64,000 nucleotides of DNA from Candidatus Buchananbacteria bacterium (GTDB taxonomy: Bacteria > Patescibacteriota > Patescibacteriia > Buchananbacterales > UBA6539): positions 344 to 64,343 of the forward strand of contig JBAYLH010000005.1 in assembly GCA_041664165.1 (NCBI GenBank). The letters run 5' to 3'. Positions 3,797 through 10,560 of this stretch are shown piece after piece. Position 1 is the stretch's first letter. Every line of letters begins with the position of its first letter. Both the position numbers and the translations under genes were made by a program. The notes beneath the pieces were generated by a model that was not told where the DNA came from, made no database searches, and saw nothing but the letters and a program-made list of their open reading frames with translations.

Positions 3797-4468
3797 TTAG
3801 TCTTTGACTAAATGTTTATTATAGCCCGCCGCCACTAACTGCTTATATGCGGCCCAGACGTCAATAGGAATTTCTTGCGGGATTTGAAAACCTTTTTCGG
3901 GATAGATTTTGAGCCGCTGCAAATCGCCGACCATAAGATTGATTACTTCATCTTGAGATTTAAATCCTTTGGAATAATCTTCAAACGCGATTGGCGGCGA
4001 AGTAACAATAGCTTCCATTTCCGGCCAAAAATTTTTAAACGTAGCATCAGCCCGGCGTTCCATATAAGGTTTTTGAACCAAAATAATTTTTTTGGGCTTT
4101 AAACCCATTTTTTCCACTAACCTTTTGGTAAACAAAATATTTTCGCCGGTATTTTGCGATTCTTTTTCAATAATAATTTTGGCCTTTGGTACGCCCATTT
4201 CTTCGGCTTTCCGAGCAAAAACCTCGGCTTCGGCTTTTCCCCACGCCGACCAGCTGGTAGAAAGCAAATCAGCCCGATGGCCGAAGCCGGTTCCGGAAAA
4301 AATAATCAATGGCGCCCAATTAGCTAAAAATAATTTAGCGGCATATTCGGCGACCCGCAAATCATGGCTGCCCAAAACTAGCATCAAATCGCCATTTTCC
4401 AGCTTTTGATTCAAGTGGTGATAATCCCAAATTTTTTTGGCCAAAAAATTAATTTGATCTTTTTCCAT
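3797..4468 (-). CDS. YdcF/DUF218 (ElyC-like) family protein
   Basis: The LVLGSH ... IIFSGTG pattern followed by EAEVFA..A...GVP and a Q.TGEN segment matches the layout of the DUF218 fold. Confidence 0.55.
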   Translation of the reverse strand: MEKDQINFLAKKIWDYHHLNQKLENGDLMLVLGSHDLRVAEYAAKLFLANWAPLIIFSGTGFGHRADLLSTSWSAWGKAEAEVFARKAEEMGVPKAKIIIEKESQNTGENILFTKRLVEKMGLKPKKIILVQKPYMERRADATFKNFWPEMEAIVTSPPIAFEDYSKGFKSQDEVINLMVGDLQRLKIYPEKGFQIPQEIPIDVWAAYKQLVAAGYNKHLVKD

Positions 4469-4474
4469 AGTTAA

Positions 4475-4969
4475 TCATTGACAAAATATTTCTATCCACT
4501 TCCTTGTCGAATTTAAAAAATTATCAGGGTTTACCCGTATTGCCTGCAATAGTTCTTCTGTTTTGAACCATTTGATTTCTTCCACTTCATCCTTATTGAT
4601 AACAAATTCCGCTTCAGGCTTATTGATTTTAATCAAATACCGCTTTACAAAATAATTATACTTTCCCGATATTCTTTCTTTCGGTCCGGCTTGCGGCACA
4701 ATTCCTTTCAGCCCTATTTCTTCTTCAGCTTCTTTACAGATATTTGTTAAATAATCTTCTTCTTGCTCGACCGTTCCGGCAACTGCCGGCCCCCACTTTC
4801 CCGGGTCATGAGATTTTGTCAACGATCTTCGCGCTAGCAAAATATCGCCCTTATCGTTTGTGATCCATAGCGCCGACACCCGATAAATATCTTCTTGTTT
4901 CACCGCGTCTCTATCCTTATAGCCAATAACATTATCTTTTTCGTCCACGATTACAATTTTTGATTTCAT
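4475..4969 (-). CDS. NUDIX hydrolase
   Basis: Nudix box GPAVAGTVEQEEDYLTNICKEAEEEIGL (GX5EX7REUXEEXGU-like). Confidence 0.7.
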   Translation of the reverse strand: MKSKIVIVDEKDNVIGYKDRDAVKQEDIYRVSALWITNDKGDILLARRSLTKSHDPGKWGPAVAGTVEQEEDYLTNICKEAEEEIGLKGIVPQAGPKERISGKYNYFVKRYLIKINKPEAEFVINKDEVEEIKWFKTEELLQAIRVNPDNFLNSTRKWIEIFCQ

Positions 4970-5003
4970 ATTTCCACCGTATTTTTAAAATCTTTTTTAT
5001 TTA

Positions 5004-5654
5004 TCATCCGCGCTTGCGAATAATGATCAGATACGCCTCAGCTGTAAGCGTTACCGGGTCATGGTTTTCATTATACTCATAAACGTCAGCTTCCGGCGTT
5101 CTTATTTCTTCTATCTGGATATTGCCACCGGCTTTTAAATTCTCCAGCGCTTCATCAACACTTTGAGATGGCCGTTGTAATTTTGACTCTTTCCGTCTCA
5201 AAACCCGCGCCAGGCGAATTTCACCGCCAGGTCTTATCACTCTCACCATTTCAGCCAAACTATTCATTACTTTCTCTTTTGCGGTGTCACCATTTCCTTC
5301 GCCGGTATAGACATTCGGAATCGCGGCATTTGAAACGACCAAATCGAAAGATTCATCCGCAAACGGTATCGCCTCGGCTTGGGCCACCACACTTTTATCT
5401 TTTCCGGTCAGATTTTCTTTTCTGGGCTCTAAACTATAAATTTCAGTACTTACCCTATGTTCTTTTGCCCATTTTGCGAATTGAGCCGCCCCGGCGCCGA
5501 CATCAAGAATTTTCTTGCCAAAATCATCCGGCTCCAGCCGGAGATCTTCTATGTAGTCCTGAAAAACTTCCTCATTAGTTTTCTCGATTATTGATGGTTC
5601 TCGCTCAAAATTTTTCATAATTTTATCCGATCTTATTTCTGCTTCCTGCGACAC
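5004..5654 (-). CDS. class I SAM-dependent methyltransferase
   Basis: Motif I ILDVGAGAAQFA with a Rossmann-fold layout. An alternative start exists at the Met of MKNFEREP (5618). Confidence 0.7.
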   Translation of the reverse strand: MSQEAEIRSDKIMKNFEREPSIIEKTNEEVFQDYIEDLRLEPDDFGKKILDVGAGAAQFAKWAKEHRVSTEIYSLEPRKENLTGKDKSVVAQAEAIPFADESFDLVVSNAAIPNVYTGEGNGDTAKEKVMNSLAEMVRVIRPGGEIRLARVLRRKESKLQRPSQSVDEALENLKAGGNIQIEEIRTPEADVYEYNENHDPVTLTAEAYLIIIRKRG

Positions 5655-5737
5655 TTTTTAAACTTAATAGCGATACCACGCTGACTTAATTTTTAAAAAT
5701 GTAATGATTTTATATGGTAATTTTAGCATAAAATTGA

Positions 5738-5764
5738 GCCAAAATCAAAACTCCCCTTTCGAGG
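5738..5764 (-). terminator. Rho-independent terminator downstream of the hicBA pair
   Basis: On the minus strand: ctcctcgaaaggggag followed by ttttgattttg. Confidence 0.5.
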
Positions 5765-5792
5765 AGCTATATCTTCCATTCTTTATAATCTA

Positions 5793-6104
5793 TTACAACT
5801 TTGCTCTTATGTCATCCCAGGTGATTCCACTACAATTTTCTATCTCTTTTAGAAGATAATACAATACATCTTTTCTTAAATCAGCTTGTATGATAACACA
5901 TTTCTGAGTTCGCGGCCACGTCGCTTTATAATGGCTACCATCACCACCATCAGTATTTATATCAAATCCTAAACTACTTAACGCCCTAATAAATTTTTTC
6001 CTTCTTACATAACCTGGTAATTGACTAAGCGAGGGCATACTGCTTCTGAGTTTCATCAGTCCGCTGTATTTTAGCTTCTTGAGCGTATGACGACGGAACT
6101 TCAA
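5793..6104 (-). CDS. hicA: HicA-like toxin (YcfA family mRNA interferase)
   Basis: FIRALSSLGF ... GSHYKATWP ... DLRKDVLYYLLKEI resembles the HicA dsRBD-like fold. The true start is probably an internal Met (about 6056 or 6038). It overlaps the upstream antitoxin-like ORF. Confidence 0.5.
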   Translation of the reverse strand: MKFRRHTLKKLKYSGLMKLRSSMPSLSQLPGYVRRKKFIRALSSLGFDINTDGGDGSHYKATWPRTQKCVIIQADLRKDVLYYLLKEIENCSGITWDDIRAKL

Positions 6105-6348
6105 AGGAAGTTAAAATTGCATCTTTTATTTTTTTATCTAATTCTTTATAATTTTTACCAGAAGTAACTATTGATCCAAATTTAAAATTAGTACTTATAG
6201 CAACTATAGAATTATCACTTTTCTTATACTCAAAGTTAATAGATCCGTAATTTCTAAAATATTCACTTAAATCAAGCAAGCTTCGTGGAATTAATTCACC
6301 ACAAAAACACTTTAATATTAGATCTTTTGACTTCTTAATTATTGACAT
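6025..6348 (-). CDS. hicB: HicB-like antitoxin (UPF0150 family, N-terminal domain)
   Basis: The TSGKNYKELDKKIKDAILTSFE segment resembles the HicB N-terminal domain. It is paired and overlapping with the HicA-like gene inside a very AT-rich island. Confidence 0.4.
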   Translation of the reverse strand: MSIIKKSKDLILKCFCGELIPRSLLDLSEYFRNYGSINFEYKKSDNSIVAISTNFKFGSIVTSGKNYKELDKKIKDAILTSFEVPSSYAQEAKIQRTDETQKQYALA

Positions 6349-6562
6349 ATTGAGATAGATTATTTTAACTTAATTTGATTACCTTGTCAATAGATTGAAT
6401 AAAAATGTAAAGGCTAAGTTAAAATGTCATAGATTGAATAAAAACCACTATATTATTTACTATACTGGTAAGAAGTTAAGTCTTTATCAAAAATAAACTT
6501 ATCCACATTCTCTAATATAAGTATACCACTACCTCTGCTATAAATAAAACTTAAAAAATCCA

Positions 6563-9289
6563 TTATTTGCCGCAGCACTTCTTAAACTTTTTCCCGCTGC
6601 CACAAGGACACAAATCATTGCGGCTGACTTTTTGGCCTTGGTAATAATGCGTCGGGTCGTCAATTGGTTTTTGGGCATCGCGGCTGGCGGCTTCCTTTTC
6701 CTGCGGCGTGGCGGCCTGGGCAATTGCCGATTGGCCCTTAGCCATGGTTTTTGCCGGCGCGACAAAAGTTAAGTTGCCGGCCGCCGGCATGACCTGAGGC
6801 GCGATATTAGCCGCGACGCCGACTTTATAGATACTATAGACAACTTGTTTGCGAATGGTCAGTAGCAAATCTTTAAACAGCTGAAACGCTTCTCTTTTAT
6901 ACTCTACCAGCGGATCGCGCTGGCCGTAACCGCGCAAGCCGATACCGGTTCGCAGATGTTCCAATGATTCCAGATGCTCAATCCATAAAATATCCATGCT
7001 GCGAAGTAAAATTCCTTTTTCCACCTGATGCATCGCTCCTTCGTCATTTAACCGAGCGCCAATTTCTTTTTCCAGTTTGTTATAAGCTTCAACAGCTAAT
7101 TTGTATAAATAACCGATTAGCCGGCCGCGCGCGCTTTTGTCTTCAATGTAACTGCCGGCTTGTTCAGAAATATCCTGCAATTTCAATCGCGTGCCGGGCG
7201 GTACGGGAAATATCGTATTGATAACTTCGTAAATTTCTTCAATGTTCCAGGTTTTTTCATCAGCGGCCGCGGTATGGAAATCAACCGCTTCAACGATTTC
7301 ATCTTCTACCATTTCCAAAACTGTCGTTTTCAAATCGGAATTAGTTAAAACATCTTTGCGTTTTTTGTAAATCGTTTCGCGGTGCTTGTTCAAAACATCA
7401 TCATATTCAACCAAGTGTTTTCGGGTGTCAAAATGAAAACCTTCGACTTTTTTCTGCGCCGCTTCCAATGATTTGGAAATCAGATTATTTTCAATCGGCA
7501 TGTCGTCGGGAATTTTCAGGGTTTCCATGATTTTTTTAATCCGGTCGGAACCGAAAATCCGCATCAAGTCATCGTCCAAAGAAACATAAAACTGCGACTG
7601 CCCCGGGTCGCCTTGCCGGCCGCCGCGGCCGCGCAGCTGATTATCAATCCGCCTAGACTCGTGCCGCTCAGTGCCGATAATAATTAAACCGCCGGCTTCT
7701 TTAACTTTCCGTTCCTCTTCGGGATCAACCGGGTCGCCGCCAAGCTTGATATCAACGCCGCGACCGGCCATATTGGTAGCCACGGTTACCGCGCCGAACC
7801 GGCCGGCCTGAGAAATTATTTGGGCTTCTTTTTCGTGAAATTTAGCGTTCAAAACTTGAGCTTTTACTCCCTCGCGCTCCAACAGCTGAGCCAACAGCTC
7901 ATTTTTTTCAATGGAAATCGTGCCAATTAAAACCGGCTGGCCTTTTTGGCTTCTTTCCTTGACGTCTTTAGCCACCGCTAAAAACTTCGCTGCTTCGTTT
8001 TTGTATATTCGGTCGGCCAAATCAGCCCGAACCATCAGCTGGTTAGTCGGAATGACGGTAACGTCCAAATTATAAATTTTGGAAAATTCTTCCGCTTCCG
8101 TCGCGGCCGTGCCGGTCATGCCGGCCAATTTTTTGTAAAGCCGAAAATAATTTTGAAAAGTTACCGTCGCCAAAGTGCGGGACTCACGCTGAACCGTCAC
8201 ACCTTCCTTGGCTTCGATAGCCTGGTGCAAGCCTTCGCTGTAGCGCCGGCCAAACATCATCCGGCCGGTGAATTCATCGACAATGATTATTTCGCCGTCT
8301 TTAACGACGTAATCGCGGTCGAGCTTAAATAAAGCGTGAGCCCGCAACGCTTGTTCAATATGATGGACTTCGGAAACGCCGCCAGCGGTATAAATATTTT
8401 CCACCCCGAGCCACTTTTCCATTTTCGCCACCCCGGTTTCGGTCAGAGTCGCCGCCCGCATTTTTTCGTCAACGTTATAATCTTCGTTTTCTTTCAAATT
8501 AACCACCAACTTGGCAAACTGATGATATTTATCCGTTGACTCCATATCCGGCGCCGAAATAATCAAAGGCGTTCTGGCTTCATCGATTAAAATGCTATCG
8601 ACTTCATCGACAATGGCGTAGTGCAAATCGCGCTGAACCATCTGGCTTAAATCGGAAACCATATTGTCGCGCAGATAGTCAAAGCCGAATTCGTTATTGG
8701 TGCCATAAGTAATATCCGCCAAATATGCTTCCCGGCGCGAAATCGGTTTTAAGTTGACCAATCTTTCGTCGGTCGCATTTTCGTCGGTAAATTCCGGATC
8801 ATATAAATATGCCGCGTCGTGGATAATCACGCCGCAAGTTAACCCCAGCCGATGATAAACCGGACCCATCCAGCCGCAGTCACGGCGGGATAAATAATCG
8901 TTAACCGTAACCAAATGGCAGCCTTTGCCTGCCAAAGCGTTAAGGTAAACCGCTGTCGTCGCCGACAAAGTCTTGCCTTCGCCGGTCTTTTGCTCGGCAA
9001 TTTGGCCTGAATGTAAAACCATACCAGCCAAAAGCTGGACATCGTAATGCCGCTGGCCGATTGACCGCCTGGCCGCTTCTCGGACGCAGGCAAAAGTCTC
9101 CGGCAAAATATCGTCTAAAGTTTTTCCTTTTTCCAATTCGGCTTTGAATCTTTGAGTCTGGTCTTTAAGCTCTGAATCGGAAAAAGCCGAAAATTTAGAT
9201 TCCAGCTGATTAATTTGTTCGACTCTTGGCTGCAAAGTTTTTAAAAACTTCTCATTGGCATCACCGAAGATAAGATTAAGTAAATTCAT
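6563..9289 (-). CDS. secA: preprotein translocase ATPase SecA
   Basis: 908 aa with DEAD-like motor motifs, the preprotein cross-linking domain and a C-terminal zinc finger (CPCGSGKKFKKCCG). The match to SecA is unmistakable. Confidence 0.95.
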   Translation of the reverse strand: MNLLNLIFGDANEKFLKTLQPRVEQINQLESKFSAFSDSELKDQTQRFKAELEKGKTLDDILPETFACVREAARRSIGQRHYDVQLLAGMVLHSGQIAEQKTGEGKTLSATTAVYLNALAGKGCHLVTVNDYLSRRDCGWMGPVYHRLGLTCGVIIHDAAYLYDPEFTDENATDERLVNLKPISRREAYLADITYGTNNEFGFDYLRDNMVSDLSQMVQRDLHYAIVDEVDSILIDEARTPLIISAPDMESTDKYHQFAKLVVNLKENEDYNVDEKMRAATLTETGVAKMEKWLGVENIYTAGGVSEVHHIEQALRAHALFKLDRDYVVKDGEIIIVDEFTGRMMFGRRYSEGLHQAIEAKEGVTVQRESRTLATVTFQNYFRLYKKLAGMTGTAATEAEEFSKIYNLDVTVIPTNQLMVRADLADRIYKNEAAKFLAVAKDVKERSQKGQPVLIGTISIEKNELLAQLLEREGVKAQVLNAKFHEKEAQIISQAGRFGAVTVATNMAGRGVDIKLGGDPVDPEEERKVKEAGGLIIIGTERHESRRIDNQLRGRGGRQGDPGQSQFYVSLDDDLMRIFGSDRIKKIMETLKIPDDMPIENNLISKSLEAAQKKVEGFHFDTRKHLVEYDDVLNKHRETIYKKRKDVLTNSDLKTTVLEMVEDEIVEAVDFHTAAADEKTWNIEEIYEVINTIFPVPPGTRLKLQDISEQAGSYIEDKSARGRLIGYLYKLAVEAYNKLEKEIGARLNDEGAMHQVEKGILLRSMDILWIEHLESLEHLRTGIGLRGYGQRDPLVEYKREAFQLFKDLLLTIRKQVVYSIYKVGVAANIAPQVMPAAGNLTFVAPAKTMAKGQSAIAQAATPQEKEAASRDAQKPIDDPTHYYQGQKVSRNDLCPCGSGKKFKKCCGK

Positions 9290-9320
9290 AAGATAATAAG
9301 TTGAATTTAAATTTAAATTT

Positions 9321-9675
9321 GTAAAAACCTACCTCTCGCCCCCTCACCAAGCCTTTGATTAAACTTTGATATCCAACCGACTAAGCTGTTGGTTTAGCCC
9401 GGATAAGGTAGGCGGTTTCCGACGGGATAACACTTAATTTTTAGGATCACTCATTCGGGCTTGGTGGGGGTGGTCACCAAAAATTTTATTAAGTATGTTT
9501 ATAAGATATAAAAAATTTTAAAGTAAAAGTTAGTAAAAATTATCTTCTCGCCCCGTACTAAGTCGCAAATAAATATTTGAAATTGATCCAAGCCAGCCGC
9601 TAGGCGGTGTTCGCGCCAAAAAAACAAAATGTTAAATTGAAATGAACCGCGGACTTTAGTGCGGGGTCACCAGTT
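9321..9675. repeat. two tandem, diverged copies (9321-9480 and 9531-9675) of a ~150-nt GC-rich structured element; candidate ncRNA or leader structure
   Basis: Both copies start with gtaaaaa..ctctcgcccc and end with ..ggggtggtcacca / ..gcggggtcaccag. Each is closed by a 13-14 bp stem formed from its own ends: ccctcaccaagcc/ggcttggtggggg in copy 1, ccccgtactaag/cttagtgcgggg in copy 2. Both share an internal taggcggt-t-cg motif. GC content is well above the surrounding intergenic DNA. Confidence 0.5.
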
Positions 9676-9715
9676 TTTAAACTTAACTTTTTGCGAGATA
9701 AGGTTTAAATGCCAT

Positions 9716-9770
9716 CTTATTATACTAAATTTTTCTAGTCTTGACAAGAGTAAAACAAGAGGAGTAAGAT
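9716..9770. promoter_or_regulatory. divergent promoter pair with overlapping -35 hexamers
   Basis: Plus strand: TTGACA (9741-9746), an 18-nt spacer, then TAAGAT (9765-9770), upstream of the response-regulator gene. Minus strand: TTGTCA (reverse complement of 9742-9747), a 17-nt spacer, then TATAAT (reverse complement of 9719-9724). The minus-strand promoter would drive a long structured leader towards secA. Confidence 0.4.
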
Positions 9771-9822
9771 TAAAAGTCGTTGGTCGAAAATGACAAAAGC
9801 AACCCAACAAGGAGGGTTTGAG

Positions 9823-10560
9823 ATGGAGAGAATAAGAGTACTGCTCGTTGATGACGATCCTGAAATTGTGGATTGTCTTGCCGAAGCCTTAACTAGTCAA
9901 GGCTTCAATGTTTACGGCGTGACTAGTCTCGCTAAAGCCTTGGAGTGGCTGGAGCAAAATACCGTTGACCTGGTTATCACCGATAGCCAGGGGATGTTAA
10001 AGGATCGTAATGACCTCCTTCCGATGATGGAAGAAATCAGGAGAATTACCGCCGTGCCGGTAATTCTGATGACCGACGCCATTAAAGAAAATCAAATCCC
10101 AGAGTTTCTTCAGCAGGGATTTGCTGCCGTCTTAATCAAGGTGGCAACCCTGAAAGATCTCTACGAAGCTATCCGTAAGCCCTTTAGGACAAAGTTCACC
10201 GTCCTAGTGGTTAATGACTGCCAAACCGCATTAGAAACCACGGCCGAGCTTATTGAAACCTTCGGATACAGCGCAGCTACCGCCAAGGACGGTCAGGAAG
10301 CCTGGGAGATGGTCAAAAAAAATCCCCCAAATCTGGTCTTTACCAGTGATTCAATGCCAAGACTTTCCGGACCAGTGCTACTCGAAAAAATGAAAGCTTC
10401 GGCAGACGACACCATCAGCGACATCCCGGTAATCCTTTACGGAACCTGGGCTACCGTTAACGAAATTAGGCTGAGAGAGCAGGGTTTTGCCGTAGTGCTG
10501 CAAAAACCGGCCAAAGCCGAAACAATTAAAGACGCTCTAATAAGCGTCTTGGGCTGCTGA
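9823..10560 (+). CDS. orphan response regulator with two tandem receiver (REC) domains and no output domain
   Basis: REC1 has RVLLVDDD ... DLVITD; REC2 has TVLVVNDCQ ... LVFTSD ... K. The Shine-Dalgarno site AAGGAGGG (9809-9816) sits 7 nt before the ATG at 9823; an alternative in-frame ATG lies at 9790. GC content and codon use (CTG/CTC) are clearly richer than the neighbouring genes. Confidence 0.7.
   Translation: MERIRVLLVDDDPEIVDCLAEALTSQGFNVYGVTSLAKALEWLEQNTVDLVITDSQGMLKDRNDLLPMMEEIRRITAVPVILMTDAIKENQIPEFLQQGFAAVLIKVATLKDLYEAIRKPFRTKFTVLVVNDCQTALETTAELIETFGYSAATAKDGQEAWEMVKKNPPNLVFTSDSMPRLSGPVLLEKMKASADDTISDIPVILYGTWATVNEIRLREQGFAVVLQKPAKAETIKDALISVLGC

Follow-up and report, generated by a model that had tools for sequence, protein, structure and literature searches.

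The window analysed here is a 64-kb stretch of contig JBAYLH010000005.1, and it carries the secA gene (6563..9289, minus strand) and, divergent from it, a response-regulator gene (9823-10560, plus strand). The 908-aa product of secA is a 100% match to a Patescibacteria SecA and contains five SecA Pfam domains, and this match assigns the organism to Candidatus Buchananbacteria. The gap between the two genes is 533 bp long, and within it lie two related palindromic segments. In this report, we show that these structures are copies of a rare palindromic insertion element, which sits inside gene starts and has a duplicated start behind it.

The two units upstream of secA

The original prediction had described two diverged GC-rich copies in tandem, each closed by a stem built from its own termini and separated from the other by AT-rich spacers. 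The tandem copies, their stems (13-16 bp) and the AT-rich spacers were all confirmed, and the boundaries have been refined to two cores at 9334-9472 (copy 1, here W1) and 9546-9665 (copy 2, W2). The term “GC-rich” holds relative to the surroundings, because the cores have 45-49% GC, against 15-18% in the spacers and 40.9% in the whole window, and it does not hold otherwise. Each copy contains one occurrence of three motifs: TCTCGCCCC (at 9334 and 9546), TAGGCGGTnTnCG (at 9409 and 9601), and GGTCACCA (at 9472 and 9665), the last of which is the complement of the secA codons Phe-Gly-Asp. The local alignment of one copy with the other scores 79, whereas shuffled sequences score 25.6 +/- 4.1 and none of 300 shuffles reaches 79; the two cores are identical at 72% of their aligned positions. 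The closing stem of copy 1 pairs 9341-9353 with 9458-9470 (13 nt, 92% complementary), and that of copy 2 comprises about 16 bp with two bulges.

Read on the minus strand, in the direction of secA, the region begins behind the promoter with r2 (9666..9718), a decayed remnant of the original secA leader and first codons, which ends in ...CTGGTGAC just before W2. Its only ATG opens a 10-codon open reading frame (ORF) that stops before this core, and only the last ~24 nt of r2 resemble the blocks r1 and r0 described below, with no similarity further upstream. Core W2 (9546..9665) is a 120-nt palindromic sequence, CCCGCACTAAAGTCCGC...GCGACTTAGTACGGGG and then CGAGA, with a covariance-model match of 93.5 bits. 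It is followed by block r1 (9473..9545), a 43-nt AT-rich tail and then the pseudo-start ATAAACATACTTAATAAAATTTTTGGTGAC (9502-9473), which has no start codon and whose reading frame ends at a stop inside W1. Core W1 (9334..9472; CACCCCCACCAAGCC...GGCTTGGTGAGGGGG and then CGAGA) is 139 nt long, has about 20 extra internal nucleotides compared with the other cores, and matches the covariance model with 91 bits. Block r0 (9260..9333) consists of a 44-nt AT-rich tail (9333-9290) and the functional secA start with codons 1-10, ATGAATTTACTTAATCTTATCTTCGGTGAT (9289-9260); its start type is that of the native starts of two lineages whose secA lacks the element, L160 and L158. In other words, the repeated unit of ~194-212 nt joins a core to an AT-rich block of 73-74 nt, whose last part copies the first ten codons of secA, and the repeat register of 212-213 nt runs on into the gene itself. 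On the minus strand, positions 9502-9473 read ATAAAC..GGTGAC where the true start at 9289-9260 reads ATGAAT..GGTGAT, and the blocks r1 and r0 are 78% identical over their full 73-74 nt. No third copy was found in the 64-kb window, either by motif searches or by the covariance model with its filters off.

The minus-strand promoter that had been proposed near these copies (TTGTCA-17-TATAAT, 9719..9747) was upheld, with 11 of 12 positions matched. The arrangement CTCTTGTCAA...TAGTATAAT, with the same -35 and -10, stands immediately 5' of secA in the relatives L096, L105, and L102, and the site at 9719-9747 is, by this comparison, the ancestral secA promoter. Between the promoter and the ATG, the secA strand has no predicted terminator-like site. 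Because the promoter is conserved and no terminator is predicted before the ATG, the secA mRNA very probably carries a leader of ~420 nt with both hairpins, in agreement with the earlier placement of the copies between this promoter and the secA ATG (9289). In the predicted fold of a 473-nt leader, each core forms a separate hairpin domain, and the surroundings of the AUG are about half unpaired.

Several features of the immediate surroundings should also be mentioned. The divergent response-regulator gene has its own promoter (TTGACA-18-TAAGAT, 9741-9770, plus strand), and a palindromic -35 region, CTTGACAAG (9740-9748), is common to this promoter and that of secA. The secA start of the window lacks a Shine-Dalgarno sequence (cttattatcttATG, 9290-9305), whereas in relatives free of the element GAGG or AAGG stands 8-10 nt upstream; the adjacent response-regulator gene has AAGGAGGG as the counterpart. 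No tRNA or tmRNA was found in the window.

Copies at other secA loci and in other genes

We compared the window with the secA neighbourhoods of nine other lineages. Eight of these (L096, L097/98, L099-101, L103, L104, L105/106, L158/159, and L160/161) lack the element, and in all eight 0-55 nt separate the secA ATG from its promoter or from the gene before it. The element is therefore present in only two of the ten related secA lineages, the window and L102, and is not a constant feature of the orthologous position. In L102, the order is promoter, native start ATGTCTATTTTAAATAAAATTTTTGGTGAT, a 117-nt core opening with CCCCTCACCAAGCC, a 26-nt tail, a second start ATGAATTTACTTGATAAAATCTTTGGTGATCCC, and secA. 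The old secA start (ATG plus 10 codons) is intact 5' of the core, and the gene restarts 3' of it; therefore, the core interrupts the old coding sequence after codon 10. As a separate observation on this gene, secA begins 3 nt after murB in L158/L159 (2997-3001), where both the regulator gene and the promoter of secA are missing; because of this arrangement, secA is presumably co-transcribed there with the mur genes.

The same core was found outside secA. A metagenome scan with a pattern for the stem (CACCAAGCC, 80-110 nt, GGCTTGGTGAGGGG) retrieved two AT-rich contigs, L108 and L109, with cores that match the covariance model R1 at 103-113 bits. In L108, the core follows codon 14 of a response-regulator gene, the pseudo-start encoding MDNKNKKILIIEDD and the real start MGSNPTKKILIIEDDKFLAKML, and a second, half-decayed unit lies upstream of the first. 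In L109, it follows codon 7 of a GT4 glycosyltransferase gene (pseudo-start ATGAAGTTATTAATGATCAC, real start ATGAAGCTTCTAATGATCAC). A further contig, L162, encodes a PilB 95% identical to that of L108, and the same regulator gene holds one unit in L162 and two in L108. Judged by the best matches of their host-gene proteins, L108, L109, and L162 also belong to the Buchananbacteria. In total, seven copies are seen on five contigs in three genes, and all seven are in the sense orientation to the host gene.

The copies share one anatomy. The unit is non-coding and about 190 nt long, with a nearly constant size of 188-194 nt, and its core measures 116-139 nt. The inverted-repeat arms of 13-14 bp, CCCC.TCACCAAGCC and GGCTTGGTGAGGGG, do not differ among L102, L108b, and L109, and W1 has them almost unchanged; the 3' arm falls short of the very end, as CGAGA and the block come after it. 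The core loops have diverged past alignment, while the stem, the central motif CGGAAnCGCCTGCGGCTTAG (in its fuller form CGGAAnCGCCT(A)GCGGCTTAG), and the CGAGA at the 3' end of the core have been kept. Within the core, the frame that enters from the pseudo-start meets a stop: after 16 aa in L102, after 45 aa in L162, and after 22 codons in the window. From CGAGA to the position that corresponds to the insertion site, the block spans 74 and 73 nt in the window, 72 and 72 nt in L108, 73 nt in L162, 71-72 nt in L109, and 56-59 nt in L102. The block is drawn from its host gene, with a short leader, the start codon, and the opening 7-14 codons; its contents are gene-specific and unrelated between host genes, and the ATG stands at +44 in secA, +28/+31 in the regulator gene, and +52 in the GT4 gene.

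At every locus, the direct repeats flanking the core exceed those of shuffled sequences: 35 vs 18.4 +/- 3.0 in L102, 37 vs 18.2 +/- 2.6 in L108b, 27 vs 15.2 +/- 2.4 in L109, 41 vs 19.2 +/- 3.3 (over 67 nt) at W1, and 29 vs 16.1 +/- 2.6 (over 48 nt) in L162. The recognisable length of the repeat is 20-21 nt in L102 and L109, 26 nt in L108b, 48 nt in L162, and 67-74 nt in the window. Beside the core, the repeat is 86-95% identical over 20-27 nt in L102, L108b, and L109.

The distribution of these sequences among lineages is mosaic. The SecA of L102 is 85% identical to that of L096 and 84% to that of L105, both element-free, and 81% to that of the window; therefore, the two element-bearing lineages are not sisters. 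The upstream start of L102 is of the native clade type, its ten codons being 83-90% identical to those of L096, L103, and L105, and the 44 nt before it are 71-77% identical to L096 and L105. Its downstream start opens with the same twelve bases as in the window, ATGAATTTACTT, and resembles the native starts of L160 and L158. The pseudo-start of L108 is a mosaic of the two starts of L162. W2 stands at the same distance (72-75%) from all other cores, its neighbour W1 included, and forms an outlying subfamily, whereas the other four cores are 79-87% alike (W1 shares 80-84% identity with those of L102, L108b, and L109). The possibility that W2 arose locally, in a recent tandem duplication, was considered and rejected, W2 being no closer to W1 than to the cores elsewhere. 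Because of the placement of L102, the mosaic starts, and the equidistance of W2, the units appear to move laterally and to recombine at their repeats; neither a single inherited insertion nor a recent local duplication fits these sequence comparisons.

Several other matches were not counted as copies. A scan of a genome collection with CTCGCCCC..AGGCGGT..GGTCACCA gave 95 matches, and all those listed lie in high-GC organisms and were taken as chance. A scan of viral contigs with TTGGTGNGGGGCGAGA gave 46 matches, none with a complementary arm. The hairpin at 1759-1877 of L107 reaches 16 bits with R1, and the scan pattern probably matched it by chance; in itself, it is a 47-bp near-perfect hairpin on a contig of 60% GC, whose outer 14 nt are the arm of the element, followed by GGGGCG. 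Two segments of L108, 2342-2455 (minus strand) and 7651-7745 (plus strand), match R1 weakly (13-15 bits) and were rejected as members of the family. Instead, they are two occurrences of another, AT-rich inverted-repeat element, aaattcaaaatcacaaattcc ... ggtatttgagatttgtaatttg, which occupies two gaps between the genes of a type IV pilus locus.

The contigs with copies in other genes have some peculiarities of their own. Directly 5' of the element array in L108 (~5250-6550) lies a 1.3-kb island of 58-63% GC within a contig of 31-44% GC. Its 419-aa ORF, with FVxxAL-type repeats, was examined as a candidate partner enzyme and dismissed, having no Pfam, NCBIfam, or PHROG match. At the position equivalent to this ORF, L162 has a 376-aa ORF (3897-5027) without a Pfam match, and a heptamer microsatellite of about 8 units (GTTCCAT/GTTTCAT/GATACAT, 5270-5335) stands immediately 5' of its regulator pseudo-start. 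The block of L109 contains a perfect 12-nt palindrome, GGCCAATTGGCC (tail, ~4610-4625, minus strand), that is absent from the native upstream sequence.

Proposed mode of insertion and its alternatives

Taking these observations together, we think that both elements are probably copies of a rare palindromic insertion element of Candidatus Buchananbacteria, which is non-coding and non-autonomous and has a long target duplication that rebuilds the gene start. The primary insertion would duplicate about 72-74 bp of target DNA. Such a duplication would account for the constant block length at three unrelated genes together with the gene-specific content of the blocks, and also for the fact that only insertions in early codons are seen, as these are the sole intragenic insertions that leave a complete gene. 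The survivors would be only those insertions whose duplication includes the ribosome-binding region and the ATG. The unit lies in the extreme 5' coding end in the sense orientation and cuts off the original start, which would decay to a short dead ORF upstream; the downstream block provides a working start, and the host promoter would read through the hairpin. Read-through and the rebuilt start may be how the essential secA tolerates the insertion. In the window, two units stand in tandem inside the old secA start. Later recombination between repeats would create and delete tandem units, and whole units would be carried laterally into the same gene of related genomes, an event that would leave only a sharp repeat of 20-27 nt and first codons of a foreign type. 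On this view, the brief and sharply bounded repeats of L102, L108b, and L109 would be secondary, arising from recombination or from transfer from another lineage. Any effect of the hairpin on secA expression would be a by-product and not the reason for the presence of the element.

Several points weigh against this reading. For a primary insertion, we found no filled site with a near-identical empty counterpart, and because of this, the duplication of 72-74 bp rests on the constant length of the block. The short repeats of L102 and L109 require the further assumption of later recombination or transfer: beyond the 20-21 nt repeat, on its upstream side, neither locus shows significant similarity to the block (184 and 453 of 1000 shuffles score as high), and a still-recognisable 72-bp duplication at these two single-copy loci is unsupported beyond 20-21 nt. 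Most MITE families (MITE, miniature inverted-repeat transposable element) are more abundant than this element, and no further copies were found in the 64-kb window or in ~150 kb of the contigs of relatives. As the independent host genes number only three, the apparent bias towards gene starts and the sense orientation has little statistical weight. Neither an autonomous partner nor an enzyme was found, and no transposase was seen in the loci compared. Finally, the stem, the central motif, and CGAGA have been kept despite the divergence of the loops, and the stems of W2 and L162 share a compensated change from GCC/GGC to GTC/GAC; the hairpin could therefore have a function of its own.

The main rival to a duplicating insertion is an integrative minicircle, in which a circle of ~190 bp (core plus block) is excised between the flanking repeats and re-integrates in the Campbell manner at a match of 20-30 nt to the block, without any duplication. 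The target would be the same gene in another genome or a similar sequence, and the block would be carried like an att site. This model accounts well for the mosaic starts: the repeats of L102 and L108b are short (20-26 nt) and end abruptly, with foreign first codons in the downstream start, and the L102_B start (type II codons 1-4 followed by alpha-type codons 5-10) is exactly what an excising crossover between r0 and r1 of the window would place on such a circle. The nearly constant size of the unit and the likeness of the three target sites, each an AT-rich run followed by GGTGAT, GATGAT, or ATGATC, also agree with it. We nevertheless regard it as unlikely, considering that it leaves the first acquisition of a new gene-specific block (secA, regulator, GT4) unexplained, that the tails of L102 and W1 are unrelated except for ATGAATTTACTT (0.44 identity), that no recombinase was identified, and that a double-stranded circle of 190 bp is sterically demanding. 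A purely local tandem duplication of the 5' region of secA, with no mobile element at all, would explain why the units stand in register with a period of 212-213 nt and why r1 and r0 are alike over their full length; as the core also occurs in other genes and genomes (L108, L109, L162) and W2 is no closer to W1 than to those cores, this is the least probable of all the explanations considered and can be given almost no weight.

Two further explanations place the function in RNA. The original prediction had taken the conserved terminal stems to suggest selection on structure, in a leader of secA, and such a cis-regulatory RNA would fit the position of the element within the transcribed leader and the predicted folding of each core into its own domain. 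Moreover, the stem of copy 2 is maintained through two compensated changes relative to copy 1, and in L102, L108, L109, and L162 the dead upstream ORF enters the 5' arm of the stem, so that its translation could open the hairpin. The upstream ORFs of the window are themselves dead, however, since r1 has no start codon and the ORF of r2 stops before the core. A role specific to secA is contradicted by the distribution, as the related secA upstream regions lack the element in eight of ten lineages and two unrelated genes possess it; a dispersed repeat, which had been named from the outset as the contrary case, is what the copies proved to be. The stems are for the most part conserved in sequence: in a five-sequence alignment, 91% of the stem cells are paired with only one compensatory pair, and 111 of 500 shuffles do as well. 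The original prediction could match no RNA family, and none was matched here. The elements of the window have no Rfam match even at E<=10, the whole window has none at the gathering threshold, and the copies of L102, L108, L109, and L162 have none at E<=0.1. Accordingly, signal recognition particle RNA, 6S RNA, Y RNA, retron non-coding RNA, ribozymes, and TnpB/IscB guide RNAs were rejected, there being no Rfam match and no conservation of the loops; for the retron, Y RNA, and TnpB types, no reverse transcriptase, Ro, or TnpB gene lies nearby. A leader RNA kept by selection on its structure is thus improbable.

The strand that folds better bears on the other RNA explanation, an antisense or guide-like small RNA from the plus strand, in which the scaffold TCTCGCCCC...GGGG would carry 20-27 nt at its 3' end complementary to the translation start of the host gene and act in trans. 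In the window, the plus strand does fold somewhat better (z of -1.7 and -2.2, against -0.6 and -0.9 on the secA strand); each of the two stems has a plus-strand U.G pair whose counterpart on the secA strand would be an A.C mismatch, and the well-conserved repeat adjacent to the core in L102, L108b, and L109 has a guide-like length. Across the family, including these three copies, the two strands fold equally well, which counts against both RNA explanations. There is no plus-strand promoter-like site upstream of either copy and no associated effector gene nearby, and the sharp boundaries of the repeats are also explained by recombination. We consider this explanation slightly less probable even than the leader RNA.

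Relation to known elements

No description of this arrangement was found in our literature searches. The closest likeness is to bacterial MITEs and palindromic repeats (Correia, ERIC, RUP, and those of Rickettsia), which also have a small non-coding hairpin core with inverted repeats, occur inside transcription units, and are flanked by direct repeats. The present element agrees with MITEs in being small and non-coding and in having terminal inverted repeats common to the members of the family. It differs in that the flanking repeats are 20-74 nt long and not a few bp, with no fixed short target-site duplication; in that the 3' inverted repeat is followed by the conserved CGAGA and a host-derived block; in its apparently very low copy number; and in that every known copy is oriented as its host gene and lies within that gene's first 7-14 codons. 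The palindromic elements of Rickettsia can sit within genes and be read through as part of the host protein (PMC10969869). Here, on the contrary, the entering frame contains stops, and the host protein begins anew from the duplicated ATG.

Long direct target repeats are also known from larger insertion sequences: those of IS1549 and IS1634 are 8-514 bp long (PMC2266710), and those of the IS1202 subgroup are 27-28 bp long (bioRxiv 10.1101/2022.12.17.520857). These elements are alike in this respect, but they are 1.3-2 kb long and encode DDE transposases, whereas no transposase is seen in the loci compared here. The ends of IS1202 start with TGT, and those of the core are CCCC.../...GGGGCGAGA. 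In addition, the length of the block looks fixed near 72-74 nt, in contrast to the variable repeats of IS1634 and IS1549.

Phages and islands that integrate at the ends of tRNA or protein genes bring a replacement gene end with them, and their attL/attR repeats have a sharp edge. The likeness lies in an insertion inside a gene that leaves the gene intact with a copy of the displaced end. Those elements are, however, kilobases in size, have an integrase, and usually use 3' ends, while this unit of ~190 bp contains no gene, lies at the 5' end, and supplies a start codon. An integron attC site has RYYYAAC and GTTRRRY core sites at the ends of its hairpin; this identity was rejected, as the ends here are CCCC.TCACC and GGTGAGGGGCGAGA, with no GTTRRRY. 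In the secM-secA operon of Escherichia coli, an upstream ORF and an RNA helix also precede secA on one transcript, and secM encodes a conserved, translated arrest peptide. The upstream ORF found here is instead a decaying remnant of secA without a conserved peptide, dead in the window and not specific to secA, and the frame traversing the core differs among L102, L108, and L109, so that no conserved, translatable upstream ORF of the secM kind is present. Compared with the MITEs, palindromic repeats, and insertion sequences above, the element differs in the length and apparent fixity of its duplication, its exclusive position in first codons, the restart of the host gene, and its apparently very low copy number.

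A broader and more speculative possibility is that these copies belong to an undescribed class of ~190-bp “gene-start squatters” in the gene-dense genomes of Patescibacteria, found even in essential genes, each carrying or creating a prosthetic start (leader, ATG, and first codons, in a fixed block of ~72-74 nt). Their mechanism would be new to bacteria, whether an integrase or transposase with a stagger of ~72 bp or a homology-guided minicircle, and the conserved hairpin would be the recognition structure. We offer this only tentatively and think it rather doubtful.

For practical purposes, the copies are a warning for annotation, as start calls and “long structured leaders” near such elements may mislead. 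The element would explain why closely related SecA, regulator, and glycosyltransferase proteins begin with unrelated residues, and the nearly constant block of 72-74 nt points to insertion with an unusually long and precise target duplication. The mosaic starts would record the lateral exchange of tiny DNA segments between lineages of the Buchananbacteria. These observations suggest that selfish DNA can persist even in very compact genomes, where intergenic space is almost lacking, by sitting in the first codons of a gene and rebuilding its start, even when that gene is the essential secA.

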